NCBI GenBank assembly: GCA_038891035.1
Contig: JAWAEW010000005.1
Span: 1,425-65,424, forward strand
Source of the DNA: Candidatus Anstonellaceae archaeon
GTDB taxonomy: Archaea > Micrarchaeota > Micrarchaeia > Anstonellales > Anstonellaceae
Direction: 5' to 3'
Length of the DNA stretch: 64,000 nucleotides
The position numbers were made by a program, and so were the translations under genes. The stretch's first letter is position 1, and each line of letters opens with the position of its first letter. Positions 17,883 to 34,855 of the stretch are shown one piece after another. A model generated the notes under the pieces. The model saw nothing but the letters and a program-made list of their open reading frames with translations. It did no database searches and was not told the origin of the DNA.

Positions 17883-17939
17883 GTGACAAGTTGTTTGATA
17901 GTTAGAATTTAATAAGTAGTAGTCTAGTATAATACTACT

Positions 17940-18695
17940 ATGGAGGAAAAGGCTTACCAAAATCTTGAAAGACGCATTTGCGATGCAGGACTAAGCATGA
18001 TGGAAAGCCGTACTTATCTTGCACTAGTCCAGCTTGGCCCTTCCCCTGCGTCTTCTATAATTAGGCTTGCTGGAATGCATAAGGCTACAGTTTATCAGGC
18101 ACTTCAGTCGCTGATAGAAAAGGGGCTTGTCTCGTTTACAATTGAAGGTAAAAGGAAAGTTTTTCGCCCTGCTGAACCAAGACTCCTTCTGGAGAAGCTT
18201 GCCGAAAAAGAGTCCTCTCTGGAGCAAGCCCTTCCTGACCTTGAAAGGATTTACAAAGCACATTCACTTGGAAAACAGCAAGTGAGCGTATATGTTGGGA
18301 AAGAAGGGATTAGGTCTGTGTTGAATTCCATGATAAGAGAGATTGGGCCTGGCGGGTTTTATTGTGATTTTGGAGTGTCTGGCCTTTTTAGGAAGGTGAT
18401 GGGCTCATATTTTACATTATGGCAAAAACTCAAGCGCAAAAAGAAGATAACATCATATGTCATTTTCAACGAGAAGCTGAGAAAGGACAAGGAATTTTTC
18501 AAAGAATATTTTGGCAAAGCAAGATTTTATCCTGAAAAGTACGAAAGCTTGACAGACACTATGATTTACAATGACACTGTAATACTGCTTATCTGGACTG
18601 CAAAGCCTCCGCTTGCGATTGTGATAAAAAGTAAGGAAAATGCAAAAAGCTACCTCAATCAATTCTGGCTGATGTGGGAAAAGGCTAAGCCTTAA
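17940..18695 (+). CDS. TrmB-family transcriptional regulator
   Basis: N-terminal winged HTH (LSMMESRTYLALVQLGPSPASSIIRLAGMHKATVYQALQSLIEKGLV) and C-terminal effector domain. Divergent from paralogue A, with a 57-bp spacer. Confidence 0.75.
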   Translation: MEEKAYQNLERRICDAGLSMMESRTYLALVQLGPSPASSIIRLAGMHKATVYQALQSLIEKGLVSFTIEGKRKVFRPAEPRLLLEKLAEKESSLEQALPDLERIYKAHSLGKQQVSVYVGKEGIRSVLNSMIREIGPGGFYCDFGVSGLFRKVMGSYFTLWQKLKRKKKITSYVIFNEKLRKDKEFFKEYFGKARFYPEKYESLTDTMIYNDTVILLIWTAKPPLAIVIKSKENAKSYLNQFWLMWEKAKP

Positions 18696-18761
18696 GCAGA
18701 CTAATTGTGCAGGACTAAACTTCTGCGTTAGAATATTAACACTTATTTCCAAAAAATAAGC

Positions 18762-20462
18762 ATGGCTCCTCTAAAAGAGATAATCAGAAAGCACACACTG
18801 AAAAATGCGTATGACCACGGTCAGGCTATTCCATCAAAAGTTATAGGGAAGGTTCTTGGGGAGTGGCCGCAAGCAAAAGAAGACTTGAAAGCTACGATGA
18901 AGATGATTGAAGAAGAAACAGCAAGAGTAAATGCTCTTTCAAAAGAGCAGATTGAAGAGGAGCTTGCTCAATTCTCCTTTGAAGAAAAGGTTGAGCAAAA
19001 AAAAGAGCTTACATTGCCTGAGGCAAAACAAGGGCAGGTAGTGACTCGATTCCCTCCAGAGCCTTCAGGATACCCACATATCGGACATGCCAAAGCCGCT
19101 TGGCTGGATTTCGAATGCGCGATGAAATACGAAGGAAAGATGATATTAAGGTTTGATGATACCAATCCAGAAAAGGAAAAGCAGGAATTTGTAGATGCAA
19201 TAAAGGAAGGACTTTCATGGCTTGGAATAAGATGGCACATGGAAACTTACACCTCGGACTATATGGAACTGCTTTACGGATATGCAGAAAAACTTCTTGA
19301 AACAAGGAAAGCCTATGTTTGCAGCTGTAGCCCACAAGAGATAAAGAAAGGAAGAGAAGCAGGGCAAGAATGCGCCTGTAGGGGCAGAACTGCTAATGAG
19401 AATTTGAGGTTATTTGAGCAGATGAAGATTGGCGATTTGGAGGAGGGAGCAGCAATCGTCCGCTTCATGGGCGACATGAAATCTGAAAATACCGTAATGA
19501 GGGACCCGACTCTACTCAGAATAGTAAAAACATCGCACTACAGACAAAAAACAAAATACTGCTGCTGGCCTTCTTATGACTTTTCAGCGCCGATACTTGA
19601 CTCAGTAGAAGGAGTAACACATGCAATGCGCACCAAAGAATACGAATTGAGAGATGCGCTTTATTTTGCAATCCTGGAAGCACTTGCTCTTCGCAAGCCG
19701 CATATGATAGAATTTGCAAGGCTGGAGATAAAAAATGCTCCAGTCTCAAAGAGGCTGATACTGCCGCTGGTCCAAGAAGGGAAAGTGGATGGGTTTTCTG
19801 ACCCGCGCCTGCCAACCTTGGCAGGATTAAAAAGGCGAGGAATTTTGCCTGAGGCGATAAAGGAATTTGTGCTTGAGTTTGGACTGTCGAAAGTGGAAAG
19901 CAAGCCAGGGTATGACAAGCTTCTTTGGTACAACAGAAAATATCTGGACAATAAGGCGATCAGAAGGTTTTTCGTGCCTGCACCGGTTCGGCTGGTTGTA
20001 GAGGGTGCGACCCCACAAGGAGTCTCACTTAGGAACCACCCCAATCTTGATCTTGGCAAGCGCACTATGATAGCAGGCAAAGAATTTTACATTGCTGGAC
20101 AGGATGCATCATCAATTGCTGAAGGAGAGGTTTTCCGCCTTAAAGAACTTTACAACGTAAAGCTTGTATCAAAAACAAAAGATGGTCTGCTTGCCTCCTT
20201 CGTCAGCCAGGAAGGCGCTGTTGAGAAAAAAATCCAGTGGGTTCCTGCTGAGGGGGCAGTCAGCTGCACTGTCTACAAGCCTGGAAAGCTTTTAGACGAA
20301 AATGGCCAGTTCAACCCAAAAAGCATGCTACAGGAGGAAGGCTATTGCGAGCCTTCGTGCATCAATCTTGCAGAAGGATCAGTTGTGCAGTTTGAAAGAT
20401 ATGGCTACTGTAGGCTAGATAGGAAAGAAGCTAGCAATCTGGTTTTCATATTCTCATGCTGA
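18762..20462 (+). CDS. gltX: Glutamyl-tRNA synthetase (archaeal type)
   Basis: Class I HIGH motif (PEPSGYPHIGHAKAA), archaeal GluRS architecture. Confidence 0.9.
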   Translation: MAPLKEIIRKHTLKNAYDHGQAIPSKVIGKVLGEWPQAKEDLKATMKMIEEETARVNALSKEQIEEELAQFSFEEKVEQKKELTLPEAKQGQVVTRFPPEPSGYPHIGHAKAAWLDFECAMKYEGKMILRFDDTNPEKEKQEFVDAIKEGLSWLGIRWHMETYTSDYMELLYGYAEKLLETRKAYVCSCSPQEIKKGREAGQECACRGRTANENLRLFEQMKIGDLEEGAAIVRFMGDMKSENTVMRDPTLLRIVKTSHYRQKTKYCCWPSYDFSAPILDSVEGVTHAMRTKEYELRDALYFAILEALALRKPHMIEFARLEIKNAPVSKRLILPLVQEGKVDGFSDPRLPTLAGLKRRGILPEAIKEFVLEFGLSKVESKPGYDKLLWYNRKYLDNKAIRRFFVPAPVRLVVEGATPQGVSLRNHPNLDLGKRTMIAGKEFYIAGQDASSIAEGEVFRLKELYNVKLVSKTKDGLLASFVSQEGAVEKKIQWVPAEGAVSCTVYKPGKLLDENGQFNPKSMLQEEGYCEPSCINLAEGSVVQFERYGYCRLDRKEASNLVFIFSC

Positions 20463-20530
20463 GCTTCTGCAAAAAACAAATAACTCAAATATGAGTAATA
20501 AAGATAAAAACAGCCAGTTCGGAGTTTGAG

Positions 20531-20980
20531 ATGGTGGTTTGGATGCTTGCTGAAAATCAAAAGGTCCCAGAATTCTCTTTACCTGACCCAACAGGAAAAG
20601 ACATACGGCTTTCTGATTTCAAAGGAAAAGTGGTTGTTTTGTACTTTTATCCAAAGGACGACACTCCTGGCTGCACCACTGAGGCTTGTAATTTCAGGGA
20701 CATATACAGTGAGCTTAAGAGTTTGGGGGCCGAAGTGGTTGGAGTTTCTCCAGACAGCCCGAAATCTCATTCTGCATTTGCGTCCAAATACGGCCTTCCT
20801 TTCCTACTACTTTCTGACCAGAAAAAAGAGGTTGCAAAGCTTTTTGGAGCGCTCAAGGATGACGGCTCGATCCTTCGCTCCACTTTTATAATAGACAAGG
20901 AAGGGAGGTTGAAGAAGGCATTCTTTGGGGTGGATCCTGCAAAGCACCATCAAGAGGTACTGAAATTTTTGAGAGAATGA
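20531..20980 (+). CDS. bcp: Peroxiredoxin (Bcp / AhpC-TSA family thiol peroxidase)
   Basis: FYPKDDTPGCTTEACNFRD peroxidatic Cys motif. Confidence 0.85.
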   Translation: MVVWMLAENQKVPEFSLPDPTGKDIRLSDFKGKVVVLYFYPKDDTPGCTTEACNFRDIYSELKSLGAEVVGVSPDSPKSHSAFASKYGLPFLLLSDQKKEVAKLFGALKDDGSILRSTFIIDKEGRLKKAFFGVDPAKHHQEVLKFLRE

Positions 20981-20981
20981 G

Positions 20982-21446
20982 TCATTTTTGCTGTGCGACT
21001 ATTACTATATCAGCAGTATTTCGCAGAGCAACCGAAAAGCCAGGCTCGCTTCCGATTACAATTGTCTCTTTTCCGAGCTCTTTTGCCTTTACAAGCACTG
21101 GCCTAAAATCTATATCGCGTGTCATCAGAGCAATTGCCTGGATGTGTGGATTATAAACTTGAACCATCGCTTCTACTGCCATAGTTACATCGACATCACC
21201 AGTAGTTACTACTGGCTCATAGCCCTGATTGGTCATTGCCTCAATCAGTTTATCTGAGGCGTACTGGTCAAGAAAAATCTTGGCCACTTTTATTTGTCCA
21301 TACTGTTCGACTGCCTTTTTTACTTGCACTAAATCCAATCGGACATCCTTGCGAATCACATTCGGTCCATCAATAAAAAGGGCGATGTTTTTGTCTTTTT
21401 TCTTTTTTTGCAGCATGGATTTGATTTTGTCCAGCATGCTTGCCAT
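20982..21446 (-). CDS. NYN (LabA-like) domain protein
   Basis: NIALFIDGPNV, GDVDVTMAVEA and IALMTRDIDFRPVL match the NYN/LabA consensus. Confidence 0.75.
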   Translation of the reverse strand: MASMLDKIKSMLQKKKKDKNIALFIDGPNVIRKDVRLDLVQVKKAVEQYGQIKVAKIFLDQYASDKLIEAMTNQGYEPVVTTGDVDVTMAVEAMVQVYNPHIQAIALMTRDIDFRPVLVKAKELGKETIVIGSEPGFSVALRNTADIVIVAQQK

Positions 21447-21450
21447 ACCA

Positions 21451-22185
21451 TCACCTTTTTCCTATATTGAAAAATGAAATTGTATTGAATAAAGTTCGGT
21501 ATTTTGCTTCTTCAACCGACCAATTCTTTGCCTCTGCAATTAGCTTTATTGACTCAAATGTGTCAGATGGGGATTTGCCAATTGCAGGCGCATCAGATTC
21601 TGCCAATATGCGCTCTGGAGGAATTAGAGAAATCAGTTCTTTTCTCCTACCACTTCTCAGTGGAGGCACAGAGATCCAGCCATTTTTAGAAGTAGCTTGG
21701 GCTGCAGTTGCGGCATCTCCTGAAAAGCAGTGCAAAAGGTAGTGAAGGTTGAAGTTTTCTAAGATTTCCACGCACTCTTTTTCAGCCTGCCTGCTGTGCA
21801 CCACTACAGGAAGCCCTAGCCTTTCTGCAAGCTGAAGCTGAGATATGAAGCACTCGTGCTGTAAGTACTTTTCTTCTTCTGTTTTGCCCCAATAGTAATC
21901 CAGTCCAATTTCACCTATGCCTACAAGCTTGCCGGCAGGGGCAATTTCCTTTTCTATTGCCTCCTCCCACTCAACAAGCGAAACCTTTATCTGCTTGTGT
22001 CTGATTGCCTCCTGCGGCGAGATTCCAGCACAGATATACACGTTTGGATGCTCTTGAGCTATTTTGGCATTTCTTAAGTTGGTCTGATGAGAGGTGCCAC
22101 AGCTAATAATCAAAATATCTGGAGGGATGGGACCACTGCAGGATTCTACATGGCAGTGCGCATCTGCAAAGGTGTAACCTTCCAT
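21451..22185 (-). CDS. TatD-family metal-dependent hydrolase/DNase
   Basis: DAHCHVE N-terminal motif. GEIGLDYYW. HSRQAEKE. HCFSGD. Confidence 0.8.
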   Translation of the reverse strand: MEGYTFADAHCHVESCSGPIPPDILIISCGTSHQTNLRNAKIAQEHPNVYICAGISPQEAIRHKQIKVSLVEWEEAIEKEIAPAGKLVGIGEIGLDYYWGKTEEEKYLQHECFISQLQLAERLGLPVVVHSRQAEKECVEILENFNLHYLLHCFSGDAATAAQATSKNGWISVPPLRSGRRKELISLIPPERILAESDAPAIGKSPSDTFESIKLIAEAKNWSVEEAKYRTLFNTISFFNIGKR

Positions 22186-22192
22186 TCAATCA

Positions 22193-22540
22193 CTACTCTA
22201 CATCAGAAAGCCTTGCCCTGATTCTCTTTTTCACTAGATGATCATGCGCAAGCATTCCATGGCGTATCTTTCGAATTGCCAGGAGCAAAAGCAGAAGGAA
22301 AACGAAAAAAAATGTAGAATCAACCAGGCGCTGGCTTTCTTGCTCAAGCAACCTGAAGGTAGAAGCAAACTCTGCAGTGAAGAAGAGCAGCAAGGCTGCC
22401 ACCATTATCTGAAATGTCTTTGAAAAGGAGCTGCTTCGATCCCTCCAATACATAGGAACAATTGTCCAAATCAAATAGGCTGCCACTGCAAGATTGGCAA
22501 TGCGTATCAAAAGCTCAAGAACGCTTAAATAGTCGGTCAT
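22193..22540 (-). CDS. Small membrane protein (hypothetical, 3 predicted TM)
   Basis: Hydrophobic ORF. No domain recognised. Confidence 0.4.
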   Translation of the reverse strand: MTDYLSVLELLIRIANLAVAAYLIWTIVPMYWRDRSSSFSKTFQIMVAALLLFFTAEFASTFRLLEQESQRLVDSTFFFVFLLLLLLAIRKIRHGMLAHDHLVKKRIRARLSDVE

Positions 22541-22590
22541 AATCAGAATTTGCTTTTATCCCTTATATTCTTATCTGCTCAAACTGCTTC

Positions 22591-23124
22591 ATGAGGCTTT
22601 TTGTTGCAATTAGAGTGCCAAAGGATGCATTGCCTCAAATCCAAAGAGTATCTGCCCCGCTTGAAGGCGCACTTGGAGTAAAAATGACAAAGCCTGAAAA
22701 TCTGCACATTACTCTTCGGTTCATAGGAGAAGTAGAAACCCAACAGGCAGAAAAGATAGCTGAGGCTTTAAACCGGATTGAGTTTGAGCCTTTCGAAGTT
22801 AAGCTTTTCTTAGCAGGGGCATTTCCAAACAGACATTTTCCAAGAGCAATATGGATAGGTGGAAGCAGCCAGGAAGCAAGCCAACTTGCATCAAAGATTG
22901 ACTCAGTCTTGTCCTTTCTGAAGCTTCCGCAAGAGGAATTCAGACTGCATCTGACTGTTGCGCGTGCCCCGAAAAGTGCTGCGGATATAGATGACTTCCT
23001 CAACCAGCCACCGTTTTGCATTTCCTTTCCAGTAGATGCATTCTTTTTGATAAGAAGTAGACTTACACCGGAAGGCCCAATCTACGAAGATATAAAAAAA
23101 TACAGTGCCAACAAGCCTGCGTGA
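22591..23124 (+). CDS. ligT: 2'-5' RNA ligase / 2H phosphoesterase (LigT)
   Basis: Two H-x-T/S-x motifs (HITLRF and HLTVAR). Confidence 0.8.
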   Translation: MRLFVAIRVPKDALPQIQRVSAPLEGALGVKMTKPENLHITLRFIGEVETQQAEKIAEALNRIEFEPFEVKLFLAGAFPNRHFPRAIWIGGSSQEASQLASKIDSVLSFLKLPQEEFRLHLTVARAPKSAADIDDFLNQPPFCISFPVDAFFLIRSRLTPEGPIYEDIKKYSANKPA

Positions 23125-23761
23125 TGCCATGAGGCAAATAAAGATAGTTCCAGCGATTCTTTCCAAGACAAAGGAGGACTTTCAAGACAAGCTTAAGAGG
23201 GTGCAGTCCTTTGTGGATATGGTTCAAGTGGATGTAATGGATGGTGTTTTTGTCCCAAACAAGACTTTGGAACCTGAATTTTTTCCTAACTTTCCAAAAG
23301 GGATGAAGGTTGAATACCATCTAATGGTAAATTCTCCTTTGGAGTATGTCAAAAGGATCGGGCACAAAAAAGCAATATACGAGCTTCATGTAGAAGCCTT
23401 GACGGATATAAATAAGGCAATAAAGGAGGTGAGGGGAATGGGAGGAGATGTGGCCCTTGCTATTTCTCCAGATACCCCCTCCTCTACAGTTGAGCCTTAT
23501 CTGGACCAAATTACGCATGTACTTGTTATGACTGTTTACCCTGGCTTTTCTGGGCAGAAATATCTGCAAACGATGGAAGATAAGATAATGAGGCTTGCCA
23601 GGTTAGGCGCAATTGTTGAAATAGATGGTGGTGTTGAAGTCGGAGTGGTAAAAAGAGCGGCAGCAGCAGGTGCAACCATGTTCGCAGCAGCCTCTGCAAT
23701 ATTTTCCAAAGGAGACGTAAAGCGCGCCATAGATGAGCTTATGCAGGATGCCCAAATTTAG
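23105..23761 (+). CDS. rpe: Ribulose-phosphate 3-epimerase
   Basis: KIVPAILS...VQVDVMDGVFVPN and Rpe-type TIM barrel motifs. Confidence 0.85.
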   Translation: MPTSLRDAMRQIKIVPAILSKTKEDFQDKLKRVQSFVDMVQVDVMDGVFVPNKTLEPEFFPNFPKGMKVEYHLMVNSPLEYVKRIGHKKAIYELHVEALTDINKAIKEVRGMGGDVALAISPDTPSSTVEPYLDQITHVLVMTVYPGFSGQKYLQTMEDKIMRLARLGAIVEIDGGVEVGVVKRAAAAGATMFAAASAIFSKGDVKRAIDELMQDAQI

Positions 23762-23781
23762 CTTTAATTTTAAAGTTTGCC

Positions 23782-24663
23782 TTGCAAAGTTTGAATGGGG
23801 GCATTTTTGTGCAGCCGAGGCTTAAGACGATCAAAGAATTAAAGCTTATGGCCAACACTATCCGCTGCGACATTATCAGAATGCTTGCGGCAGCAGGCTC
23901 CGGCCATACGGCAGGTCCACTCGGACTTGCAGACATCTTTTCCATATTGTACTTTCATGAGATGGAATACGACCCTTCCAATCCCAAGGACCCAAATCGA
24001 GACAGGCTGGTGCTTTCAAATGGGCATTGCGCACCCGTGCTTTATGCTACACTGGCTCGTGCAGGCTATTTTCCAATAGAAGACACACTTTCTTTGCGCA
24101 AGCTCGGCTCGCGCTTTCAGGGCCATCCAAGCAGGCATTGGATGCCTGAAGTAGAAACTTCCTCTGGCCCGCTGGGCGAGGGACTTGCTATTGCATGCGG
24201 AATTGCGCTTGCAGGAAAACTGGATGGGCGCAATTTTCGCGTTTTCTGCATCACTTCTGATGGAGAGCATCAAGAAGGTGCTACGTGGGAGGCGGTTATG
24301 TTTGCATCAAAATACAAGCTGGATAATCTAATTGCAATTTGCGACAGAAACTACATCCAAATTGATGGGCCTACTGAAGAAGTTATGCCGGTTTTGGATT
24401 TGACAGAAAAATATCGTGCTTTTGGATGGAACGCTATCTCTGTAAATGGGCACGATTACGAAAATATAATTTCTGCTCTCAAGCAGGCAAGCAGCACAAA
24501 AGGCAAGCCTACCATGATTGTGGCCTATACCACACCAGGCAAGGGAGTTTCATTCGTAGAAAACAAGCATGAGTGGCACGGCAAGGCTCCAAAGCCCCAA
24601 GAAGCTGATTTGGCGCTGAAGGAGCTTGAAGAAGAAAGAAAAAGGATTGAGGGAGAGCTGTGA
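23782..24663 (+). CDS. Transketolase, N-terminal (TPP-binding) subunit
   Basis: GSGHTAGPLG, SNGH and GDGE TPP-binding motifs. Split tkt as in archaea. Confidence 0.9.
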   Translation: MQSLNGGIFVQPRLKTIKELKLMANTIRCDIIRMLAAAGSGHTAGPLGLADIFSILYFHEMEYDPSNPKDPNRDRLVLSNGHCAPVLYATLARAGYFPIEDTLSLRKLGSRFQGHPSRHWMPEVETSSGPLGEGLAIACGIALAGKLDGRNFRVFCITSDGEHQEGATWEAVMFASKYKLDNLIAICDRNYIQIDGPTEEVMPVLDLTEKYRAFGWNAISVNGHDYENIISALKQASSTKGKPTMIVAYTTPGKGVSFVENKHEWHGKAPKPQEADLALKELEEERKRIEGEL

Positions 24664-25643
24664 ACATTTTGCCTGAAATGCACCTTAAGGATATAAATTT
24701 TCAGCTTGCCTCTGCGGCAACGCGAGAAGCATTTGGGGACGCGCTTGCAAAAATAGGCGAGCTTGATCCAAACGTTGTCGCCTTATCTGCGGATGTTGCA
24801 GGCTCAGTCCAAATTGCAAAATTTGCCTCAAAGTTCCCAAACCGCTTTTTCAATGTCGGAGTTGCAGAGCAGAATCTTGCCTCAGTTGCTGCAGGGCTTG
24901 CATATAGCGGCAAGATTGCATTTATTGGCGCCTTTGCGGCATTCTCTCCTGGAAGGAATTGGGAGCAAATAAGGACAACCATATGCTACGGCGAAGCAAA
25001 TGTAAAAATTGAGGGCTCACATTCTGGATTAGATGTAGGCGAAGACGGAGCCACCCACCAGATGCTTGAGGATTTGGCGCTCATGCGCTGCTTGCCAAAT
25101 ATGGTAGTTGTTTCGCCGTGCGATTATAATGAAGCTTACAAGGCAACGTTTGCTGCATGGAAAACACCTGGTCCTTTTTACATAAGGTGTACTCGGGGCA
25201 AGATACCCATCTTTACTACCGAAGAGACGCCCTTTGAGCTTGGCAAGATCAACCTTCTTTGCGAAGGAAGCGATCTTGCAATTGTTGCAACTGGAAATAC
25301 GGTCTATCCTTCTTTAGTTGCGGCTTCTATGCTTGAAAATGAAGGCTTCTCGGTTGCAGTCGCAAATATGCATACGATCTCAGACCCTGACGAAAACATG
25401 CTGGAAAGGCTTGCTAGAACCTGCGGTGCAATTTTGACTGTGGAGGACCATCAAGTAAAAGGAGGATTGGGAAGCGCTGTGTGCGAGGCTCTTTCGGCTC
25501 GCTATCCTGTTCTAATAAGAAGACATGGGGTGAATATGGCCTTTGGCGAGTCTGGCAGTGGAAGCCAAGTGCTTGCAAAGTATGGATTGGATGCTAAAGG
25601 CATTGCATCGGTTGCAAAGCAGCAAATTGAGGTGAGAAAATGA
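24660..25643 (+). CDS. Transketolase, C-terminal (pyrimidine-binding) subunit
   Basis: FNVGVAEQN...EDGATHQ. Start overlaps the N-subunit stop. Confidence 0.9.
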
Positions 25644-26290
25644 AGATATTTTTGGATACTGCAGAAGTGGAAAAAATTAAGCGCTTTGCGCAGCTTGGTT
25701 TGGTGGATGGGGTTACCACAAATCCGACTCTGATACTCAAATCAGGAAGAAAGCAGAAGGAAGTGATTGAAGAAATTTGCAAAATAGTAAAAGGACCAGT
25801 CTCGGTAGAAGGGGTGGAAGAAAAAGCTGAAGGAATGGTTAAGGATGGGCGAGAATTTGCAAAGTGGGCAAAAAATGTAGTGGTCAAAATCCCTATGACT
25901 GCTGAGGGGATGAAGGCTGTAAGGATGCTTTCTGAGGAGGGGATCAAGACTAATGTGACTTTGGTATTTACTGCAAGCCAGGCACTGCTGGCTGCAAAGG
26001 CAGGGGCAACCTATGTCTCTCCATTTGTTGGTAGGCTAGATGACATCAACATAAACGGGATGGATTTGATACGCCAGATTATGAAGATATATGGCAACTA
26101 TGGCTTTAAGACTGAAGTAATAGTTGCTTCTGTCAGAAGCGAGAGGCATGTTTTGGAGGCGGCAGAAGCTGGTGCACATATTGCAACCGTTCCACCAGAG
26201 GTGCTGGAAAAAATGTTTTACCATCCACTCACAGAAAAAGGTATAAAGAAATTTTTGGAGGACTACCTTGCTGCAGCAAAGAGCAAATAG
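25640..26290 (+). CDS. Transaldolase / fructose-6-phosphate aldolase (short Tal/FSA type)
   Basis: [15 protein letters not shown] and VKIP, with Schiff-base Lys context. Confidence 0.85.
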
Positions 26291-26295
26291 GGGTT

Positions 26296-27666
26296 TTGAT
26301 GAAGTGCGCTCACCCAAATAAAGCTCAAGAAGTATTTTCCAAAGTCTTGCTCAAGATAAAACCTACTCCCAAGGAAAATGAAAAGAGTTTAAAGGCGGCT
26401 TATGTATTAATTGAGAAGCTTAAGAAAGTGGCTCCTTCTTTTGTGCGAATAGAGCTTGCAGGTTCGCTTGCAAAAGGAACCAACTTGAAAGGCAGAAATG
26501 AATTTGATATTTTCATTTTATTTCCTCGACACTACTCCCATCACGAGATAGCTTTACTGGGGCTATCTTATGCTCGCAGGGCTTTTGCCGGAATGCATTT
26601 GGAGTCACGCTATGCAGAGCATCCTTATATTCAGATCCAAACGCCTTATTACAAAGCAGATGTGGTGCCTGCATACAACATAGAAAGCATAGAGCAAAAA
26701 GGCTCATCGGTAGATCGTTCAATACTTCATACTAGATATGTAAATGCTCACCTTTCTTTGCAACAAAAAGACGAAGTAAGACTGTTAAAACGGTTTATGA
26801 AAAATTTTGGCATCTATGGAGCTGAACTTCGGGTAGAGGGATTTTCAGGCTACCTTTGTGAGCTTCTGCTAATAAAATATGGTTCGCTGCTTTCATTGAT
26901 GGAGGCTGCCTCAACATGGAGCCAGCCAACAATTGTATTTGAAGGAAGCATAAGCGAGGAAGAGGCCAGGAAGAGGTTTTCTTCGCCTCTGGTCGTAGTT
27001 GACCCTGTGGACCCAAGACGAAACGTTGCAGCAGTTGTATCTCAAACGTCTCTTTCCAGATTTATATTTGAGTGTAGGAGGTTTCTAAAGGCACCGTCCG
27101 AAAGATTCTTTTTCTTGAAAAAACCTCGCAAAAGCCCATCAGGGATAGTAAAGCACATACAAGAGAGAGGAACAGAATGCCTTGCAGTGATATTCCCTGC
27201 TCCAAAAACTATTCCAGATGTCCTTTGGCCTCAGCTGAAAAAAACTGCGCATGCGATTGTTAGGAAACTTCAAGAGCAAGATTTCGGGGTCTTTGGGTTC
27301 TACTATTGGAGCGATGGCAAAGAATGTGACATACTTCTTGAGCTTGACCGCTGGAAGCTTCCGAAAATCAAAAAACTGCAAGGCCCTTCTGTACAATTTG
27401 CCTCTGATGTAGACTCATTCATAATAAAGCACTCGAAAGCGCTCAATATCCATTTGGAACATGATAAGATAGTAGCAGTGGAAAAGCGGAAGGAAACTGA
27501 AGCAAGAAGATTTCTGTTAAAGTCTATTTCAAATACTGCTGGTATGGGTATTCCAGTTTTAATGGAAAAGCAATTAAGGTTGGCAAAAGTCCTACCTGCA
27601 TCTTTGATTGCAAACAGAAAAAGGCTTGAATTTCTTTCGGACTACTTTTTTGCAAAAATAGCATGA
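26296..27666 (+). CDS. cca: CCA-adding enzyme (class I archaeal tRNA nucleotidyltransferase)
   Basis: GSLAKGTNLKGRNEFDIFILFP nucleotidyltransferase motif. Archaeal CCA architecture. Confidence 0.85.
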   Translation: MMKCAHPNKAQEVFSKVLLKIKPTPKENEKSLKAAYVLIEKLKKVAPSFVRIELAGSLAKGTNLKGRNEFDIFILFPRHYSHHEIALLGLSYARRAFAGMHLESRYAEHPYIQIQTPYYKADVVPAYNIESIEQKGSSVDRSILHTRYVNAHLSLQQKDEVRLLKRFMKNFGIYGAELRVEGFSGYLCELLLIKYGSLLSLMEAASTWSQPTIVFEGSISEEEARKRFSSPLVVVDPVDPRRNVAAVVSQTSLSRFIFECRRFLKAPSERFFFLKKPRKSPSGIVKHIQERGTECLAVIFPAPKTIPDVLWPQLKKTAHAIVRKLQEQDFGVFGFYYWSDGKECDILLELDRWKLPKIKKLQGPSVQFASDVDSFIIKHSKALNIHLEHDKIVAVEKRKETEARRFLLKSISNTAGMGIPVLMEKQLRLAKVLPASLIANRKRLEFLSDYFFAKIA

Positions 27667-27736
27667 CATTTTTTATTTTTGAACTTGATGAAATTTGAAA
27701 ATGGCTTGCCGAAGGCTAATTTAGGGTGCTACTGAA

Positions 27737-29293
27737 ATGGATTTGCTGGATTCTGTTCTTCAAAAAGCTTGGGCTTCCACATGCCGTGTTGTTTTGAGAA
27801 GAGAGCTTGGAAGTCTGGATCTTTTTCGCCCTTGGCTACTGGAACATATCCCAAAAGTGGCTTGCAGGGATTCGGTTTATGGAAAGGTGATTCTTGCAAG
27901 GGATTGCTATCCAGAAGGAGCATCTTGCGTCCCACAGGATAGGGTAACAATCAACAAAGAATTTACTTTGAGCATAAATCAGATTAAAGACATAGATTCT
28001 ATTATTAGCGCATGCCTTGAAAGGTTTGAATATGTTGGAAACAAAGTTTTAGGAAACAGTGCATTTGTCCGAGACTCAGATATTGTAATTGATTCGCAAT
28101 ACGTAAACAGTTCAACAAACATCGAGGAGTCCTCATATATAGATTGTTCTTTCATGGTTAGGAAAGGTAGCAAATACTGCTTTGGCTCAGGCTATTGTGG
28201 CCAGTCAGAATTTTTGATACGAACAATTGGCACCTTCAACAGCAAATACTGCTTTGAGAGCTATTTTGTCACAGATTCCAGCTCTGCATACTTTTGTGAA
28301 AGCTGTCATGGGTGCAAAGAGATTATGTTCTGTTTTGGGCAGAGAAACTCTTTGTATAAGATAGGCAATCTCCAGCTTCCAAAAGACAAATATTTTTCCT
28401 TGAAAAGCAAGCTGCTTGAGGAGGTTTGCGATGAGCTTGAAAAGGAAGGCAGGTTTCCTGCACTATTTGAAATTGCTAAGGAATCTTCTGAGAGAATGGA
28501 AAAGTTGGAAATTGAAAGCAAAACAATCAAGCAGAATATGAAGATTATTGATAATGGATTTGAAAAAACTTCTAGGATCATACTAAAGCGCGGCCTTGGA
28601 CCTATAAAAGAATATGAAAATTGGCTTATGAACAATAGCCAGAACATTGCAAAAATTAAGAGTGCATTTGGAATGGAAGTAAGTATACCTTTATCATTTG
28701 CTTATTTTTCCTTTCTGCCAAAAGACAGAATAGTCAGTTTTGACGAGATGGAAAAAATAGGCCAGCAGTCGCTTTCCCAACAAGATATAGCAAGCATAAA
28801 ACAGTTGAAGCAAAAGATAGGTAAGATTGCATATTTCACCTCTGAATTTTATGCTGGCGAAAATGCAAACTATATCGACTCGCCAGTGGTCTTCTATGCA
28901 ACCAACGTATACAAGACTTATGATGCCACATATGCAGACAACATAGGCGCATCCTTCCTTGCCTTGAACTCGAAATTTATCTATGGAGGATTCCGCATAC
29001 TTGAATCCCAGTTCTCTATAAAGTGCTATAATTCACTTTACATGAACCGCTGTATGGAGATGGATTCGTGCAGCAAATGCTCAGATTCATACTTTTGCCA
29101 CAATTGTGAAAGCTTGGCGGATTGCATGTTCTGCTTTTCTGCAAAAGGAAAGAGAAATATGATAGGGAACATGCAGCTTTCAAAAGAAAGATACGCAAAA
29201 ATAAAGGATTCTCTTGTGCAACAGATGGCAGACGAGCTTGAGAAGACGAAGAGGCTGCGTTTTAGCATATACTTTGAAAGGGGAAAAGATTAG
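27737..29293 (+). CDS. Cys-rich tandem-module protein, paralogue B (uncharacterised family)
   Basis: MDLLDSVLQKAWASTCRVVLRRELGSLDLFRPWL. CESCHGCKEIMFCFGQRNSLYKIGNLQLPKDKY. Second module ends CSKCSDSYFCHNCESLADCMFCFSAKGKRNMIGNMQLSKERY. Confidence 0.7.
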   Translation: MDLLDSVLQKAWASTCRVVLRRELGSLDLFRPWLLEHIPKVACRDSVYGKVILARDCYPEGASCVPQDRVTINKEFTLSINQIKDIDSIISACLERFEYVGNKVLGNSAFVRDSDIVIDSQYVNSSTNIEESSYIDCSFMVRKGSKYCFGSGYCGQSEFLIRTIGTFNSKYCFESYFVTDSSSAYFCESCHGCKEIMFCFGQRNSLYKIGNLQLPKDKYFSLKSKLLEEVCDELEKEGRFPALFEIAKESSERMEKLEIESKTIKQNMKIIDNGFEKTSRIILKRGLGPIKEYENWLMNNSQNIAKIKSAFGMEVSIPLSFAYFSFLPKDRIVSFDEMEKIGQQSLSQQDIASIKQLKQKIGKIAYFTSEFYAGENANYIDSPVVFYATNVYKTYDATYADNIGASFLALNSKFIYGGFRILESQFSIKCYNSLYMNRCMEMDSCSKCSDSYFCHNCESLADCMFCFSAKGKRNMIGNMQLSKERYAKIKDSLVQQMADELEKTKRLRFSIYFERGKD

Positions 29294-29335
29294 ATTTTTA
29301 TATGTTGAATAGGAATCTGCAAAAGAGGCGAAAGT

Positions 29336-30202
29336 GTGAAAGCGGCAACTTTGTTTGCAGCGGTATTTCTTTTGACGGTTGGATTCGTATTTGCAGGGAC
29401 TGCAAGCTGCCAAGATGGAACCAAGCACGGCAGTTGCTCAAAGGTCAATCCTGGACTTTACTGCATAGACGGAAAACTTCATCCTTATGTTTCGTTTTGC
29501 CCTTGTAGTGCGGTGCCTGGATGGAAGCAGCAAGGAGAAGGCGAGAATGCAGTTTGTGTTCAAGAAAAATGTGCTGATGGGACTGAATCTGGCAAATGCT
29601 CTTCTGATAAGCCGAAGCAGTGCGTAGGAGGTCGGCTGATTGACAACGCAACTGCATGCGGCTGCCCGCCAGGCAAAATTATTAGCCAAAACGGACTTAC
29701 ATGCGTATTTTTGCCATGCAATGATTCTGGAGTGAGCGTGCCAGAAGGGACCTGCTCACCAAAATCAGCAGGCAAGAAATGTGTTGAAGGCAAGCTAGTA
29801 GATAAGGCTTCTGAGTGCCCGTGTGGCGCTGGAACAGTCAAAAAAGGAGAGCGATGTGTGGTGCTTTGCGAGGATGGAACAGAGGTTGGAAGCTGCTCTC
29901 CTTCTAAGCCAAAGGAATGCGTGCTTTCTGGGCTTGGAGTTGGAGTTTTGCTTGATAACGCTTCCAAATGTGGCTGCCCCCCAGGAATGGAGACACAAGG
30001 AAACAGGTGCATAGAGGCTGGCGCAAGTTTGCCTTCCTTGTCGGGAGGGGCAGAAACTTTGACAGAGACTCTGAATGGAAGTGGCACTGAACCACAGCAA
30101 GAAGAAGCGCAGCCGCTTTCATGCTTCTGCTGCCCTTCTGCATTTGCAATCCTGCTTTTGCTTGGGATGATATACAAAGCTAAAGATAGCCCCACATTGT
30201 AA
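29336..30202 (+). CDS. Secreted Cys-rich repeat protein (4 tandem ~48-aa six-Cys repeats) with C-terminal hydrophobic anchor
   Basis: GTG start and signal peptide (MKAATLFAAVFLLTVGFVFAG). Repeats built around DGTxxGxCSxxKPKxCVxGxLxDxAxxCGCPPG. Several N-x-S/T sequons. Ser/Thr/Glu-rich linker. C-terminal CCPSAFAILLLLGMIYKAK. Confidence 0.6.
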   Translation: MKAATLFAAVFLLTVGFVFAGTASCQDGTKHGSCSKVNPGLYCIDGKLHPYVSFCPCSAVPGWKQQGEGENAVCVQEKCADGTESGKCSSDKPKQCVGGRLIDNATACGCPPGKIISQNGLTCVFLPCNDSGVSVPEGTCSPKSAGKKCVEGKLVDKASECPCGAGTVKKGERCVVLCEDGTEVGSCSPSKPKECVLSGLGVGVLLDNASKCGCPPGMETQGNRCIEAGASLPSLSGGAETLTETLNGSGTEPQQEEAQPLSCFCCPSAFAILLLLGMIYKAKDSPTL

Positions 30203-31481
30203 GTCTGTCTCTGTCCTCCGCCCATCTCTTGCCAATGTCTGTGCGATAAAAAAGGTTGGGAATTATGATGTTTTTGACTCGATTGTATGCCACTTTTCTT
30301 GCTTCTTCCATGGTGGTTCCTGATCCGGTGACCACCAGTGCATAGCCGCTGTTGCCTGCAAGCTTCCAGTCGCCCTCATCCAGCTTGACATCTCCAAGAT
30401 GTATGCCTTCAAAGCTTGGCTTTTTGAATATGATGGATGCATCCTCCGAATATCTCTTGAATGCATCAGGGTCGCGGAAAGGGAAGGGTGGCACTGCAAT
30501 CACCACCCCAACTTCAAACGCCCTCTTAGTCCGAAACTCTGGTCTTTCACCCTTTGCAATACCATAAAGGAATTGCCCCCATTCAGAAAGCACTCCTTCC
30601 ATCATTATGCTTATGTGCGGGTATCCAAACCTGCTGGTGAATTCAAGCGGATAAATGCCGCGTGAGTTTACAATGCAGTTCAAATCAATGTAACCAACAT
30701 ATCCTGATTGCGCAAGCTTTTCTTTCATTTTGCCCAAGGTAGCATTAAATAATGGGCTGTTTTGCACAAAAAACATGGAAGTCCCCATTTCACCTGTGGA
30801 TGGCCCTATGTCTCCAGGAAACATCCGTTTGTGCTCAAAGTTCACATTTACAGGACTTGCAAATTCCTTTCCATTGAAAAAGGCCCCGACTGCAACTTCC
30901 ACTCCGGATATGTATTTCTGAAGCTGAAACTCCTTTATCTTCTTGCTCCATACTTTCTTGTAGCGATTGAGCATTTCCAATATATCTTTGCCGTCATCTT
31001 CTTGCCCAACAAAAAGTAACTCTTTTTCATTTTGTGCAAGCCCTGAAGGCTTCAGGACATATCTGTCTGGATTTGATTTTATGAATTCTATTGCATCGTC
31101 AAAAGAGTTGAAAATCCATTGAGGTATTATTGAAATGCCAACAGATTCCAGCTCTTTTTGGCCAAATTGCCTATCCAGCTCAAGCTTGTCAGTGTATGCG
31201 CTTCCACCTACAACTAGTTTCCCCTCCTTTCTAAGCTCATCTGCCTCTTTTCCAAATCCAACGTCGTCAAAAACAATCACGTCTGCCCAACTGACTTCGC
31301 TTTTCCAGTCCTCGCATTTTTCCACAAATCCGTCGCAGACATCCTTTTGCTCCTTGTGGTGAATGTAGTATTTTGCCTCGTACCCTTCTTTTTTTATCTG
31401 CCAGGCCAAATCTCCAATTAGTGCATCGAATGAGACAAAAAGAAACTTCAACTTCTTCTTTTCTGCATTGTTGTTTGTCAC
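30180..31481 (-). CDS. ATP-grasp protein of the phosphoribosylamine--glycine ligase (PurD) family, divergent N-terminus
   Basis: C-terminal GYALVVTGSGTTMEEARKVAYNRVKNI...FYRTDIGKR matches the PurD C-domain (GGRVLxVTAxG...AY...YRRDIG). The N-terminus lacks the canonical GGGREHAL. Confidence 0.6.
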   Translation of the reverse strand: MTNNNAEKKKLKFLFVSFDALIGDLAWQIKKEGYEAKYYIHHKEQKDVCDGFVEKCEDWKSEVSWADVIVFDDVGFGKEADELRKEGKLVVGGSAYTDKLELDRQFGQKELESVGISIIPQWIFNSFDDAIEFIKSNPDRYVLKPSGLAQNEKELLFVGQEDDGKDILEMLNRYKKVWSKKIKEFQLQKYISGVEVAVGAFFNGKEFASPVNVNFEHKRMFPGDIGPSTGEMGTSMFFVQNSPLFNATLGKMKEKLAQSGYVGYIDLNCIVNSRGIYPLEFTSRFGYPHISIMMEGVLSEWGQFLYGIAKGERPEFRTKRAFEVGVVIAVPPFPFRDPDAFKRYSEDASIIFKKPSFEGIHLGDVKLDEGDWKLAGNSGYALVVTGSGTTMEEARKVAYNRVKNIIIPNLFYRTDIGKRWAEDRDRLTMWGYL

Positions 31482-31555
31482 TTGAATGATTTTGCAGAAA
31501 TTGTTTTTAGTGAGTGTGTTACATTTGGAACTTGTCGCCTTTTTTGAAAATAGGT

Positions 31556-31604
31556 GTTAATTTGGTATTAACATTTAAAAACCCTATGTTAATATGATAT
31601 TAAC
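31556..31604 (+). promoter_or_regulatory. hsp20 promoter with two palindromic operator-like sites GTTAAT-N5-ATTAAC flanking a TTTAAAAA TATA box
   Basis: GTTAATTTGGTATTAAC (31556-31572), TATA TTTAAAAA (31574-31581) and GTTAATATGATATTAAC (31588-31604). SD GGAGGTGA before ATG 31630. Confidence 0.45.
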
Positions 31605-31629
31605 AGTAGCATCTTGCGGAGGTGAGAAT

Positions 31630-32052
31630 ATGGTTGGGCTAGTGAGGTGGAAACCGTTCCATGACTTTGGGCTCGAAAGATTCTTTGAGGATGACTTCCC
31701 GTTCTTTCCTGGAAGATCTGGATTTACCGACCTTGCAACTGATGTCTATGATGATGGCAACAACATCGTTGTCAAGATGAATGCACCTGGCTTCCAGGGA
31801 GATGCGATTGACATAACCTTTGAAGGCAACTATCTGAAAGTGACTGGCCAGCGCAAAGAAGAGAAAGAAGAAAAGCAGAAAAATTACTACTGCAAAGAAA
31901 TCCACTCTGGCTCATTTGAACGCCTAATAAGACTCCCAACTGCAGTAAAGGCAGAAAAGGCAGAGGCAGAATACAAGGACGGGGTACTCAAAATAGTCGT
32001 CCCAAAAGAAGAGCCCAAAGGCACTAAAGTAAAAGTAAAGGTCAAAAACTAA
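31630..32052 (+). CDS. Small heat-shock protein (Hsp20/alpha-crystallin family)
   Basis: Alpha-crystallin domain (DVYDDGNNIVVKMNAPGF...GVLKIVVPK). Confidence 0.9.
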   Translation: MVGLVRWKPFHDFGLERFFEDDFPFFPGRSGFTDLATDVYDDGNNIVVKMNAPGFQGDAIDITFEGNYLKVTGQRKEEKEEKQKNYYCKEIHSGSFERLIRLPTAVKAEKAEAEYKDGVLKIVVPKEEPKGTKVKVKVKN

Positions 32053-32278
32053 GCACCCCCTTTTTTTATTTTAGTTTTATTTAACACGAACAAAAAAGCA
32101 TGTCTGGAGACTGAAATTCTGCTTTCTCTACTCTTGTTCAGGCAAAGTTAGGAATTTGAAGGACATTGGCTTGCTTGCTGCTTTCTGCCAACTGCTCTCA
32201 TAGGCAGCAGAGTTTGCAGCTTTCAGAAAAAAGTAGCAACCCAAAACTAATTTATATCTAAAATAGAAAAAGAATCTT

Positions 32279-32980
32279 ATGTCCAAGCGAACTTTTAGGA
32301 TAAAAAGTGCCACTTTTGGCATTTATCACCATGACTGCCAAACATCGGAGTCTTCAGAAAAATTCCCAGGGATAACACTGAAGCAGCTAAGCCCAGTAGT
32401 ATATCTTTCAAAAAAGAACTCTAAGCTGGACTACAGCCTTATTTGGGAGGTAGAGGCAAACTCACCATCAGAACTTGAAGAATATTTGCAATACGTGAAA
32501 AATGACCCGAGGACCATTCGCCTTCGCATACTTGAGAAAGGGAGGAATAATGCACTTATCTTGCTTCGCTTTCTTGGTACAAGCTCAACTTACGGCACAA
32601 TAATTTCCAACAAAGTAACTCTTACTTCCTTAGCCAGAGCAAAGGAAGGCTTTGAAACTTACAGTATTATCTCTGAAAAACCAAACTTCGTAAAAAAGAT
32701 GCTTGAAGAGCTATCGTGCATAGGCCAGGTAAAGATCTTAAGAGTCAGTGATTTTGACCCCAAGAAAGATCTTTTTGTGCCATCAATCACTGAGAAACAG
32801 GCAGAGGCGCTCAAGATCGCTCTTATTAACAACTACTACTCTTGGCCGAAAGGAACTACGCTGGAGCGCCTTGCTTCAATTGCAAAAATAAGCAGAAGGA
32901 GCATGCAGGAACGCCTAAGAAGGGCAGAGGCAAAACTACTTCCAGTCCTTCTGAAAGACTATCTGAAAAAGAAGCTGTAA
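32279..32980 (+). CDS. Transcriptional regulator with C-terminal HTH_10 (bacterio-opsin activator-like) DNA-binding domain
   Basis: ITEKQAEALKIALINNYYSWPKGTTLERLASIAKISRRSMQERLRRAEAKLL matches the HTH_10 consensus. The N-terminal ~150 aa is a putative sensor domain. Confidence 0.65.
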   Translation: MSKRTFRIKSATFGIYHHDCQTSESSEKFPGITLKQLSPVVYLSKKNSKLDYSLIWEVEANSPSELEEYLQYVKNDPRTIRLRILEKGRNNALILLRFLGTSSTYGTIISNKVTLTSLARAKEGFETYSIISEKPNFVKKMLEELSCIGQVKILRVSDFDPKKDLFVPSITEKQAEALKIALINNYYSWPKGTTLERLASIAKISRRSMQERLRRAEAKLLPVLLKDYLKKKL

Positions 32981-33040
32981 TTGGACATATGCCCAAAATA
33001 TCATTTTAAGTGCCGTTGGCGTTTTATTTTATGTGAAAAC

Positions 33041-34627
33041 ATGGAGAGGTCAGATGATATTCAAGATATTATTGAAAAAAGATGGAGCGGCACCTGCAAA
33101 GTTGTTTTTGGGCAGGAAATTGGATCTATCAGGGATTACACCCGATGGCTAAAGGAAAAGATTGAGCCTATTGTAATTCGCACCTCGTCTATATCTGGAA
33201 AGAAGGTTGCATATGCGATTCCGAACTATTCAGAAAACTCAAAGTGGATTGGACTTGAAGAAATAGGAAACAGCAAATTTCCTCCTCTTTCCATAAATGA
33301 AATAAAAGACATAGAAAGTATTGTGTCTGCAATCAAAGATAGGATCTATTACACTGGCAACATAGTCCTTGGAAATTCAGGCTTTATATACGAAAGCTCT
33401 AGCATTTCAGATTCATTTTACATGTACCATACAGGAAAATTTGGAGATTCTAAATACCTCGCATTTTGCACCCTTGGAAGGCTTTGTGAAGATTGCTTTG
33501 GATGCAATGGGATTGGTGAAAGCCACTTTTGCATTAAAGCATATGAAACTTTCAGAGTCAAGCGGTCATTTGAATTTTGGATGGGACAGAATTGCTCGGA
33601 CTGCTACTATACTCATAATCTTTCTGGATGCTCTGATTGTATTTTCTCGTTCAATCTGAAAAACAAACACTTTGCAATTGGAAATTGCACATTACCAAAA
33701 GATAAATACCTCAGCATAAAAAATTCTCTTCTTGAGCAGCTGAGAGATTGGCTTATTAGGAAGAAAAGGGCACCTTCGTTGCTGGACCTTATTCCACTTT
33801 CAATCCCTCCAAAATTGCCAAGACTGGCAGCAGAAAGCAAGAATTCAAAAGTAAGCGACCTTGGACCGATAGAGGAAGGGTTTGCGAAAACTTGCCAAAT
33901 AATCTTTGGAAAAAGACTTTCAGGCAAGCTGGACGATTATGCTGATTGGCTTTCCAAGCATGTCAGAAAACACCAGAAACTTCACTCTGCAATAAGCGGG
34001 GAGCAGGTTTGCAGATGGGATTACTCAAATTATTTCATGCTGCCCCAAGAAAGAATTGTTTCCCAGGGTGAGGCTCTTGCGCTCGGTGAAATCCTTGCTC
34101 TTTCAAAAGATGAGATAGATACCATCTCTCTCAACAATGTAGGGGGAGTTTTAGGCAAAATTGCATTTTTCTCAACAGAATATGCAGAAGGGACAAACAT
34201 AAATGTAATAGATTGCCCTACTCCAACTCAGTCCTCAAACTGCTACCGCACTTCCCCTGTTGTCTATTCGAAATATTGCGCTTATTCTTTTTGGCCAAGA
34301 AGCTCACAGTATATTTTTGGCTCAAATGCAATATTTGACTCTGAGTTTTGTATCCACTGCTACCATTCAGTAAAGCTTAAGCGTTGTTTTGAGATGGATT
34401 CCTGCAACTCATGCTATAACTCATATTTCTGCCACAATTGCGAAAATGTAAGCGACAGCATGTTTTGCTTCAACGCCAAAAACTTGCGCTATGCAATAGG
34501 AAATGTAGAGGTCGGGCAGGAACAATTTCTTAAAATAAAAAATCTGCTTCTCTCAAAGATTCTTGCAGAGCTTGAGGCAAAGAAAAAATTCGATTTAAAC
34601 ATATACAATATAGGACAGAAAAAATAA
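33041..34627 (+). CDS. Cys-rich tandem-module protein, paralogue C (uncharacterised family)
   Basis: ATG at 33041 (MERSDDIQDIIEKRWSGTCKVVFGQEIGSIRDYTRWL), 60 bp after the HTH_10 gene stop. CSDCIFSFNLKNKHFAIGNCTLPKDKY. Second module ends CNSCYNSYFCHNCENVSDSMFCFNAKNLRYAIGN. Confidence 0.7.
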   Translation: MERSDDIQDIIEKRWSGTCKVVFGQEIGSIRDYTRWLKEKIEPIVIRTSSISGKKVAYAIPNYSENSKWIGLEEIGNSKFPPLSINEIKDIESIVSAIKDRIYYTGNIVLGNSGFIYESSSISDSFYMYHTGKFGDSKYLAFCTLGRLCEDCFGCNGIGESHFCIKAYETFRVKRSFEFWMGQNCSDCYYTHNLSGCSDCIFSFNLKNKHFAIGNCTLPKDKYLSIKNSLLEQLRDWLIRKKRAPSLLDLIPLSIPPKLPRLAAESKNSKVSDLGPIEEGFAKTCQIIFGKRLSGKLDDYADWLSKHVRKHQKLHSAISGEQVCRWDYSNYFMLPQERIVSQGEALALGEILALSKDEIDTISLNNVGGVLGKIAFFSTEYAEGTNINVIDCPTPTQSSNCYRTSPVVYSKYCAYSFWPRSSQYIFGSNAIFDSEFCIHCYHSVKLKRCFEMDSCNSCYNSYFCHNCENVSDSMFCFNAKNLRYAIGNVEVGQEQFLKIKNLLLSKILAELEAKKKFDLNIYNIGQKK

Positions 34628-34747: not shown

Positions 34748-34855
34748 TCCCGCCAGTGTGATTTGAACACACAACATCCTGATGACTGCCAGCCCGATTG
34801 CTGACCGCCGTGCTTTTCTACAGCCAGGCGCTCTACCAGGTTGAGCTATGGCGGG
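34748..34855 (-). tRNA. tRNA-Tyr (anticodon GTA) with ~34-nt intron at the canonical 37/38 position
   Basis: Manual fold. Acceptor CCCGCCA/TGGCGGG with C1:G72 and A73 (archaeal Tyr identity). D-arm GCTC-AACCTGGTA-GAGC. Anticodon stem CCTGG, loop CTGTAG(A), intron ~34783-34816 (+ coordinates), then TCAGG. T-arm GTGTG-TTCAAAT-CACAC. TATA-like TTTAAAAAG ~30 bp upstream (34884-34896). Confidence 0.75.

Follow-up and report, generated by a model that had tools for sequence, protein, structure and literature searches.

A 64-kb stretch of DNA from a Candidatus Anstonellaceae archaeon (Micrarchaeota, DPANN), referred to below as the window, carries three paralogous genes for Cys-rich proteins (A, B and C) and two genes for transcription regulators, one with a TrmB-type and one with an HTH_10 domain. 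Paralogues A and C are probably each wired to their own neighbouring factor through a palindrome specific to that factor, and not through a motif common to the family. As read from sequence, the paralogues appear to have separate local regulators rather than a demonstrated common input. The arrangement would amount to two ordinary local modules of regulator, site and target, of a kind known in archaea, placed beside a family of unknown function.

The genes named in an earlier annotation of the window, referred to as the original prediction, were all found where it had placed them. C begins at 33041, 60 bp past the stop codon of the HTH_10 gene and on the same strand, and A (start 17882, minus strand) is separated from the divergent trmB-like gene by a spacer of 57 bp (17883-17939). 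The comparison set consisted of 78 related loci from other Micrarchaeota genomes. A sister genome syntenic with the window (GCA_038895505.1) supplied locus L081 for the region of B, HTH_10 and C, and locus L090 for the region of A and the TrmB-like gene. L091 is from another Micrarchaeia genome and L092/L093 from Woesearchaeota. Sequence from the same genome was compared in the window and in loci L001 and L074; a protein at L001 (metagenome-assembled genome (MAG) JAWAKW01) is 99% identical to paralogue A, and a protein identical to C has been recorded from this taxon.

The pairing of regulator and paralogue, which the original prediction had named as a point on which it could fail, was found to be conserved in relatives. 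Among the related loci, 11 of 15 HTH_10 genes had a co-oriented family gene immediately after them, compared with 37 of 433 other genes (Fisher p = 7e-9); no HTH_10 homologue lay on the strand opposite to the locus-defining family gene. Of 10 genes of the TrmB type, 5 were paired divergently with a family gene, a frequency to be compared with 26 of 373 (p = 5e-4). Look-ups starting from the regulator were used to remove the bias of sampling by family gene. HTH_10 homologues at 43-87% identity again preceded a family gene (L081, L082/83, L084/85), and one at 44% identity had a family gene in divergent orientation (L087); three distant homologues (30-42% identity) were not beside family genes. 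The divergent pair of TrmB-like and A-type genes was present in three Micrarchaeota genomes (the window, L090 and L091), and the A orthologues of L090 and L091 are 80% and 60% identical to A.

The regulators had also been called dedicated to the paralogues. This stood for the HTH_10 clade and not for the TrmB-like protein, whose orthologues (50-77% identical) are found across DPANN, under source names that include Woesearchaeota, Nanoarchaeota and Pacearchaeota, and occur in lineages where no family gene was seen beside them. Two of the three paralogues (A and C) stand beside a regulator; B has no regulator gene adjoining and neither palindrome upstream.

The spacer between HTH_10 and C opens with the palindrome TTGGACATATGCCCAA, a candidate HTH_10 operator. 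The palindrome, TTGGRCATATGYCCAA, was found in the same place in L081, L035, L015, L020, L022, L025, L029/L080, L033, L011, L079, L082/83 and L084. In all, more than 12 genomes have it, with HTH_10 proteins that share 43-87% identity with that of the window, and it is perfectly symmetric in L081. An AT-rich box follows within about 5-15 nt in all relatives and lies 30-45 nt before the start codon of the family gene. The aligned stretch (spacer and surroundings) is 96% identical to the sister genome, versus 86% for the whole collinear block. A total of 802 kb of non-redundant sequence was scanned with up to two mismatches. Of 13 matches, 11 lie at most 90 nt upstream of the start of a family or HTH_10 gene, in upstream intervals that make up 3.9% of the sequence (p = 2e-14); a twelfth abuts an HTH_10 stop codon at the end of a locus. 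Within the window the palindrome is a single site even with three mismatches, and it stands before neither A nor B. The HTH_10 gene itself is preceded at about 27 nt by the AT-rich box AATTTATATC, with GATTTAAATAG at the aligned place in L081, which would be the TATA box of a leaderless transcript. Across the window, start codons show an enrichment of TATA-like words 18-39 nt upstream.

HTH_10 and C had been proposed to form a two-gene operon. The shared strand and the short gap support this, and the gap is 8-83 bp in most relatives, with examples down to 8-12 bp. Against it, the spacer has a palindrome that is conserved and, at promoter distance from the ATG of C, an AT-rich box, so that a plain two-gene operon looks too simple; the two elements suggest an internal promoter before C. 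In a plain operon the palindrome, which could form a short hairpin, would act in RNA, through termination, attenuation or processing. Such a role is quite unlikely. The window, L015 and L022 have the same asymmetric bases, GGAC...GCCC, with no compensating change, which argues for recognition at the DNA level rather than in an RNA hairpin. The palindrome is also found in the divergent spacer between a family gene and HTH_10 in L087, which is not transcribed through; variants of it precede HTH_10 genes without a family neighbour in L086 and L088; and in L079, where the HTH_10 gene is 3.4 kb away, it still stands before the C-type gene. The regular position of the AT-rich box after the palindrome likewise speaks against a function confined to RNA.

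The HTH_10 domain was assigned to residues 170-221 of the regulator (PF04967, 49.4 bits against a cut-off of 23.1, E = 4e-13). The original prediction had described the protein as Bat-like, which did not hold for its N-terminal part. Residues 1-165 gave no Pfam hit even at E = 10, and no PAS or GAF domain was detected. An AlphaFold2 model (predicted local distance difference test (pLDDT) score 92) folds these 165 residues as two tandem alpha/beta units. The best structural neighbours of the region are weak (Ta1207, template modelling (TM) score 0.42, and chains of M20 peptidases). His17 and Cys20 (H17-x2-C20) are invariant in 54 homologues, and this pair is the sole hint, a weak one, of a signal that involves metal or redox state; the redox or metal stress regulon of the original prediction is speculative.

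A second HTH_10 subfamily (L050, L055, L066 and L070), about 25% identical to the protein of the window, is accompanied by a different palindrome, CCGCTC-N2-GAGCGG; it directly follows the HTH_10 stop codon, with an AT-rich box and then a family gene after it. The type of palindrome changes with the HTH_10 subfamily. This bears on a further explanation, in which the palindromes are real sites bound by factors other than the adjacent regulators and the adjacency of the regulators has another cause, such as a protein-protein partnership with the family protein. In its favour, the assignment of binding is indirect, and the TrmB-like protein is not tied to the family, being kept in lineages in which an unrelated, radical-SAM-like gene stands divergently beside it. 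It is nevertheless unlikely, given the correspondence between palindrome type and HTH_10 subfamily, the presence of the palindrome beside HTH_10 genes with no family gene nearby, and the presence of the TrmB-type palindrome alongside the TrmB-like gene in Woesearchaeota as well.

The TrmB-like protein matches PF01978 at residues 17-80 (54 bits against a cut-off of 25.6, E = 1.5e-14). The NCBIfam equivalogs TrmB, TrmBL1 and TrmBL2 gave 46, 27.8, 24.2 and 23.5 bits against cut-offs of 650, 600, 530 and 500, and matched the DNA-binding part alone. In its spacer with A, the element TAGAATTTAATAAG had been taken for a relative of the proposed shared motif. It has GAATTT-A in common with that motif and is without TGGCTTGC. 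The window, L090, L091 and L092 all have its ATTTAA unchanged, and it is better read as the TATA box of the divergent spacer, judging from its conservation and from its distance of about 27 nt to either start codon. The spacer also has an inverted repeat at 17915-17939, within which lies the palindrome AGTAGTCT-N6-ATACTACT (17918-17939; second arm also written AKACTACT), a candidate operator. The corresponding palindromes are AGTAGTCTAATATAAGACTACT in L090, TGTAGTCTTGAATAAGACTACA in L091 and TGTAGTCTTAATCAAGATGACA in L092. All four genomes have the ATTTAA box and then GTAGTCT...AGAC/TxAC immediately before the start codon of the regulator. In the window this palindrome is a single site and stands before neither B nor C.

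In the Woesearchaeota (L092/L093, 2298-3893) the TrmB-like gene and its palindrome are paired with a gene for a radical-SAM-like protein of 531 aa (CHIGCDGCYK motif). This neighbour was considered as a member of the Cys-rich family and rejected: the profile search gave E = 0.68, and the protein carries a CxxxCxxC radical-SAM-like motif. The pairing indicates that the TrmB-like regulator predates its link to the Cys-rich family. Other TrmB subfamilies beside family genes have a different spacer palindrome, CCCCCTAGGGGG. Palindromes like CTTCCCCCTAGGGGGTCGTAGTAG are common to the divergent spacers of L017 (3895-3988), L052 (3954-4048) and L060 (3832-3979), and L017 and L046 also carry TGACATATGTCA palindromes.

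Both arrangements were compared with known systems. In the TrmB family a site downstream of the TATA box leads to repression and a site upstream of the transcription factor B (TFB) recognition element (BRE) and TATA box to activation; in archaea generally, a factor bound between the TATA box and the transcription start blocks recruitment of the polymerase (PMC4158304). Described sites are TACT-N3-AGTA for TrmB of P. furiosus, TGM for TrmBL1/Tgr and TACT-N7-8-GAGTA for VNG1451C of H. salinarum (PMC4158304). The protein of the window resembles these regulators in its N-terminal TrmB winged-helix domain, in an inverted-repeat site that ends outward in AGTA...TACT, in the position of that site between TATA box and start, which is the repressing arrangement, and in the location of its gene next to the candidate target. 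It differs in having no detectable sugar-binding effector domain in its 251 aa, in its repeat GTAGTCT-N4-8-AGACTAC, which is not a described motif, and in the spread of its orthologues across DPANN. The HTH_10 candidate site, immediately upstream of the BRE and TATA region, resembles the upstream-activator arrangements of Ptr2 (M. jannaschii) and TFB-RF1 (P. furiosus), cited in PMC4158304. The HTH_10 protein belongs to an unrelated family, and activation by it is suggested by position alone.

Bat, the bacterio-opsin activator, is an HTH_10 (PF04967) regulator of Halobacteria. The HTH_10 protein of the window shares with it the C-terminal HTH_10 domain, a gene beside the candidate target and a candidate site upstream of the TATA region, consistent with an activator; unlike Bat it would have two alpha/beta units, as modelled, in place of PAS and GAF domains. 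To our knowledge the palindrome TTGGRCATATGYCCAA has not been described before, and as far as could be found both palindromic sites appear to be undescribed.

The following mechanism is proposed. The HTH_10 protein, probably as a dimer, would recognise TTGGRCATATGYCCAA (32981-32996) directly upstream of the TATA/BRE region of C, a position suited to an activator or to a repressor that competes with TFB. C would then be a separately controlled target, beyond a mere second gene of an operon, and where the palindrome precedes the HTH_10 gene itself, HTH_10 probably autoregulates. The TrmB-like protein would recognise GTAGTCT...AGACTAC (17918-17939) between the lone AT-rich box and its own start codon. 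Since the site lies between TATA box and start, the classic repressing position in archaea, self-repression is most likely. The protein's control may extend to A, for which the AT-rich box appears to serve as well, read in the reverse direction.

Several points weigh against this mechanism. Each palindrome was assigned to the adjacent factor from co-occurrence only, and the direction of regulation was inferred from the position of the site. Promoter elements, transcription starts and leaderless transcripts were inferred from spacing, and the TATA position signal across the window is broad. The HTH_10 palindrome of the window has one asymmetric position (A5/C12), and its TrmB palindrome has weaker inner arms than that of the sister genome. 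The scan of the same genome covered 64 kb and L074, and more copies of the palindromes or of the proposed motif could lie elsewhere. A common input could also act in trans, for example as one signal sensed by both regulators.

The original prediction had proposed a common input, in which GAATTTGAA-N2-6-TGGCTTGC is a functional operator shared by the promoter of B and the HTH_10-C unit, with a degenerate copy in the A/trmB spacer. The strings are present, as GAAATTTGAAAATGGCTTGCC (copy 1, 27690-27710, plus strand) and GGAATTTGAAGGACATTGGCTTGC (copy 2, 32151-32174); the third, TAGAATTTAATAAG, lies at 17903-17916, two bases off the start of 17901 that had been given. The pattern AATTTGAA-N(0-12)-TGGCTTGC has exactly two matches in 64 kb (N2 and N6), both on the sense strand upstream of family units, versus 0.01 expected, a figure that flatters the motif because the pattern was derived from the two sites themselves. 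A fairer null asked for any pair among the four family upstream regions to share two collinear exact 8-mers. This was reached in 140 of 20,000 dinucleotide shuffles (about 0.007, post hoc). Among real intergenic pairs of the window, 5 of 325 had a comparable bipartite match, four of the five unrelated to the family. A null based on gapped local alignment was discarded as uninformative, as cheap gaps and the Markov resampler inflated its scores. The match is nominally unusual (about 0.01) but not compelling.

Conservation counts against the motif. It is missing from the syntenic sister genome at both orthologous positions. With two sites in the whole window, and none directly before C, it neither precedes all members of the family nor recurs at the orthologous promoters of relatives. 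Neither half is enriched by itself within the window or upstream of family genes in the related loci. The copies are also placed inconsistently, 28-47 nt before the ATG of B versus 105-128 nt before that of HTH_10. A functional shared operator therefore seems highly improbable, and the proposal appears largely refuted by non-conservation.

The sister genome also gave the origins of the two copies. L081 has the gene order CCA enzyme, B, a gene for 275 aa, HTH_10 and C, and blastn identity to the window is 73% in the left block and 86% in the collinear HTH_10-C block, which begins at 32169. Conservation upstream of B is confined to AAATTTGA, which directly adjoins the start codon in L081. The window carries 36 nt here (about 27697-27732) that L081 lacks, and these hold the TGGCTTGC of copy 1. 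Copy 2 lies in 32095-32236, which aligns at the DNA level with the coding 3' end of the 275-aa gene of L081. By tblastn, residues 220-275 of the L081 protein match this remnant with 39% identity (E = 0.1). The remnant was translated by hand in the frame of the tblastn hit and gave ...WLACCFLPTALIGSRVCSFQKK versus PLACCCLPTALIGIAGFAAFRKK in L081; it reads ...EFEGHWLACCFLPTALIGSRVCSFQKK, with an in-frame stop just before, and the L081 protein ends LEDEGEGQKGLTPLACCCLPTALIGIAGFAAFRKK. The motif halves of copy 2 match GGAAGATGAAGG and TCCGCTTGC in the L081 coding sequence, with two mismatches in each and 25 nt further apart. The two copies are of unrelated origin, copy 1 being situated mostly in an indel and copy 2 in a decaying stretch that once was coding, and their resemblance is read as a coincidence between promoter-proximal or leader sequence of B and a pseudogene remnant upstream of the HTH_10 gene.

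Two other readings were tried and rejected. The motif was considered as a relic of the coding signature [FY]-x-x-W-L of the family, near-matches to it being found inside family genes; tblastn with A, B and C found no fragment at either site. A structured RNA was considered before the HTH_10 gene; the 226-nt region had no Rfam match, and fold z-scores were +1.2 and -0.6.

Two observations concern the start of B. Through the 36-nt indel the window gains a short open reading frame of seven codons with its ATG at 27700, and B gains a Shine-Dalgarno-like AGGGTG ahead of its own ATG. In the sister genome B appears to be leaderless.

Table 1. Coordinates of the genes and sites discussed (positions in the window).
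Feature	Position	Strand	Description
Paralogue A	16302-17882	-	526 aa; aligned with B and C
Reader's element TAGAATTTAATAAG	17903-17916	.	AT-rich TATA-like box, about 27 nt from both start codons
Palindrome AGTAGTCT-N6-ATACTACT	17918-17939	.	Between TATA-like box and trmB ATG; candidate operator in repressing position
TrmB-like regulator	17940-18695	+	251 aa; winged-helix domain and unassigned C-terminal part; PF01978
Motif copy 1	27690-27710	+	First half promoter-proximal to B; second half in lineage-specific 36-nt insertion
Paralogue B	27737-29293	+	518 aa; aligned with A and C
Cys-rich repeat protein	29336-30202	+	288 aa; hydrophobic N- and C-termini
GARS/ATP-grasp-like gene	30180-31481	-	Pfam; missing at this place in L081
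hsp20	31594-32052	+	Pfam; missing at this place in L081
Decayed remnant, 3' end of ancestral 275-aa gene	32095-32236	+	Holds motif copy 2 and an in-frame TAG
AT-rich box AATTTATATC	32249-32258	+	About 27 nt before HTH_10 ATG; L081 has GATTTAAATAG at the aligned place
HTH_10 regulator	32279-32980	+	233 aa; tandem alpha/beta N-terminal region (modelled) and C-terminal HTH_10; PF04967
Palindrome TTGGACATATGCCCAA	32981-32996	.	First 16 bp of HTH_10-C spacer; candidate HTH_10 operator; abuts AT-rich box of C
Rest of HTH_10-C spacer	32997-33040	+	AT-rich boxes AAATATCATTTTAAG and TTTTATTTTAT; putative own promoter of C
Paralogue C	33041-34627	+	528 aa; aligned with A and B

The candidate targets of the two regulators belong to a large family. 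In alignment A, B and C are Cys-rich and mutually 35-41% identical. Each is an internal duplication with two halves of about 260 aa, and one His and seven Cys are invariant or nearly so in the family. A, B and C had no match in Pfam, NCBIfam or PADLOC, the family had no PDB hit by sequence-profile search, and an AlphaFold2 model of C (predicted TM score 0.86) had no Foldseek match in PDB or BFVD. A description of the family was not found in a literature search. A profile search gave 1,539 clusters at 50% identity. All homologues with a taxon name were from Micrarchaeota-lineage MAGs, and the family appears to be restricted to Micrarchaeota. Relatives (loci L009-L013, L033, L040, L051 and L068) have tandem arrays of up to seven family genes, among them half-length members (about 255 aa) that occur as adjacent pairs. 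C is 90% identical to its counterpart in L081. B-type orthologues head co-oriented clusters with HTH_10 and a C-type gene in L015, L029, L033, L011 and L081, so that B and C were probably once in one cluster. A PLD-like (PLDc_2) gene lies directly 5' of B-type family genes in L015, L029/L080 and L056, and a DUF87/TrwB-type ATPase gene adjoins the family array of L080.

Between B and the HTH_10 gene the window is rearranged. The GARS-like gene and hsp20 stand between the 288-aa gene and the remnant, and 30146-32094 is an inserted block relative to the sister genome, with the original 3' end of the 275-aa gene left as the remnant. The 288-aa protein is 52% identical to the product of L081 6028-6855, amid neighbouring genes that are 80-90% identical, and so its gene appears to have evolved fast or to have been replaced. 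Its N-terminus is hydrophobic, and its C-terminus has a PL-x-C-x-C-x-P-[ST]-A motif, after which come a hydrophobic stretch and basic residues. Just downstream of C, Rfam matched a tRNA at 34748-34855 (minus strand, 108 nt, 53.8 bits) that was not reported by ARAGORN; it is probably an intron-containing archaeal tRNA.

Almost nothing is known of gene regulation in DPANN archaea. The present comparison clears away a misleading motif, one that would have been read as defining a regulon, and replaces it with two concrete, testable regulator-site pairs, predicted and backed by comparison across multiple genomes. Both pairs point to a large Micrarchaeota family and may yield the first functional hint for these Cys-rich proteins. 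It is quite possible, although the broader claim is still tentative, that an HTH_10 clade with the undescribed operator TTGGRCATATGYCCAA and an autoregulated TrmB-like factor, kept in several DPANN lineages and with an operator of its own, control members of this family. If so, the family could form part of an inducible system specific to the lineage, which might serve in stress or in host interaction, and the two factors would provide an experimentally tractable regulatory handle in organisms with almost no known regulation.

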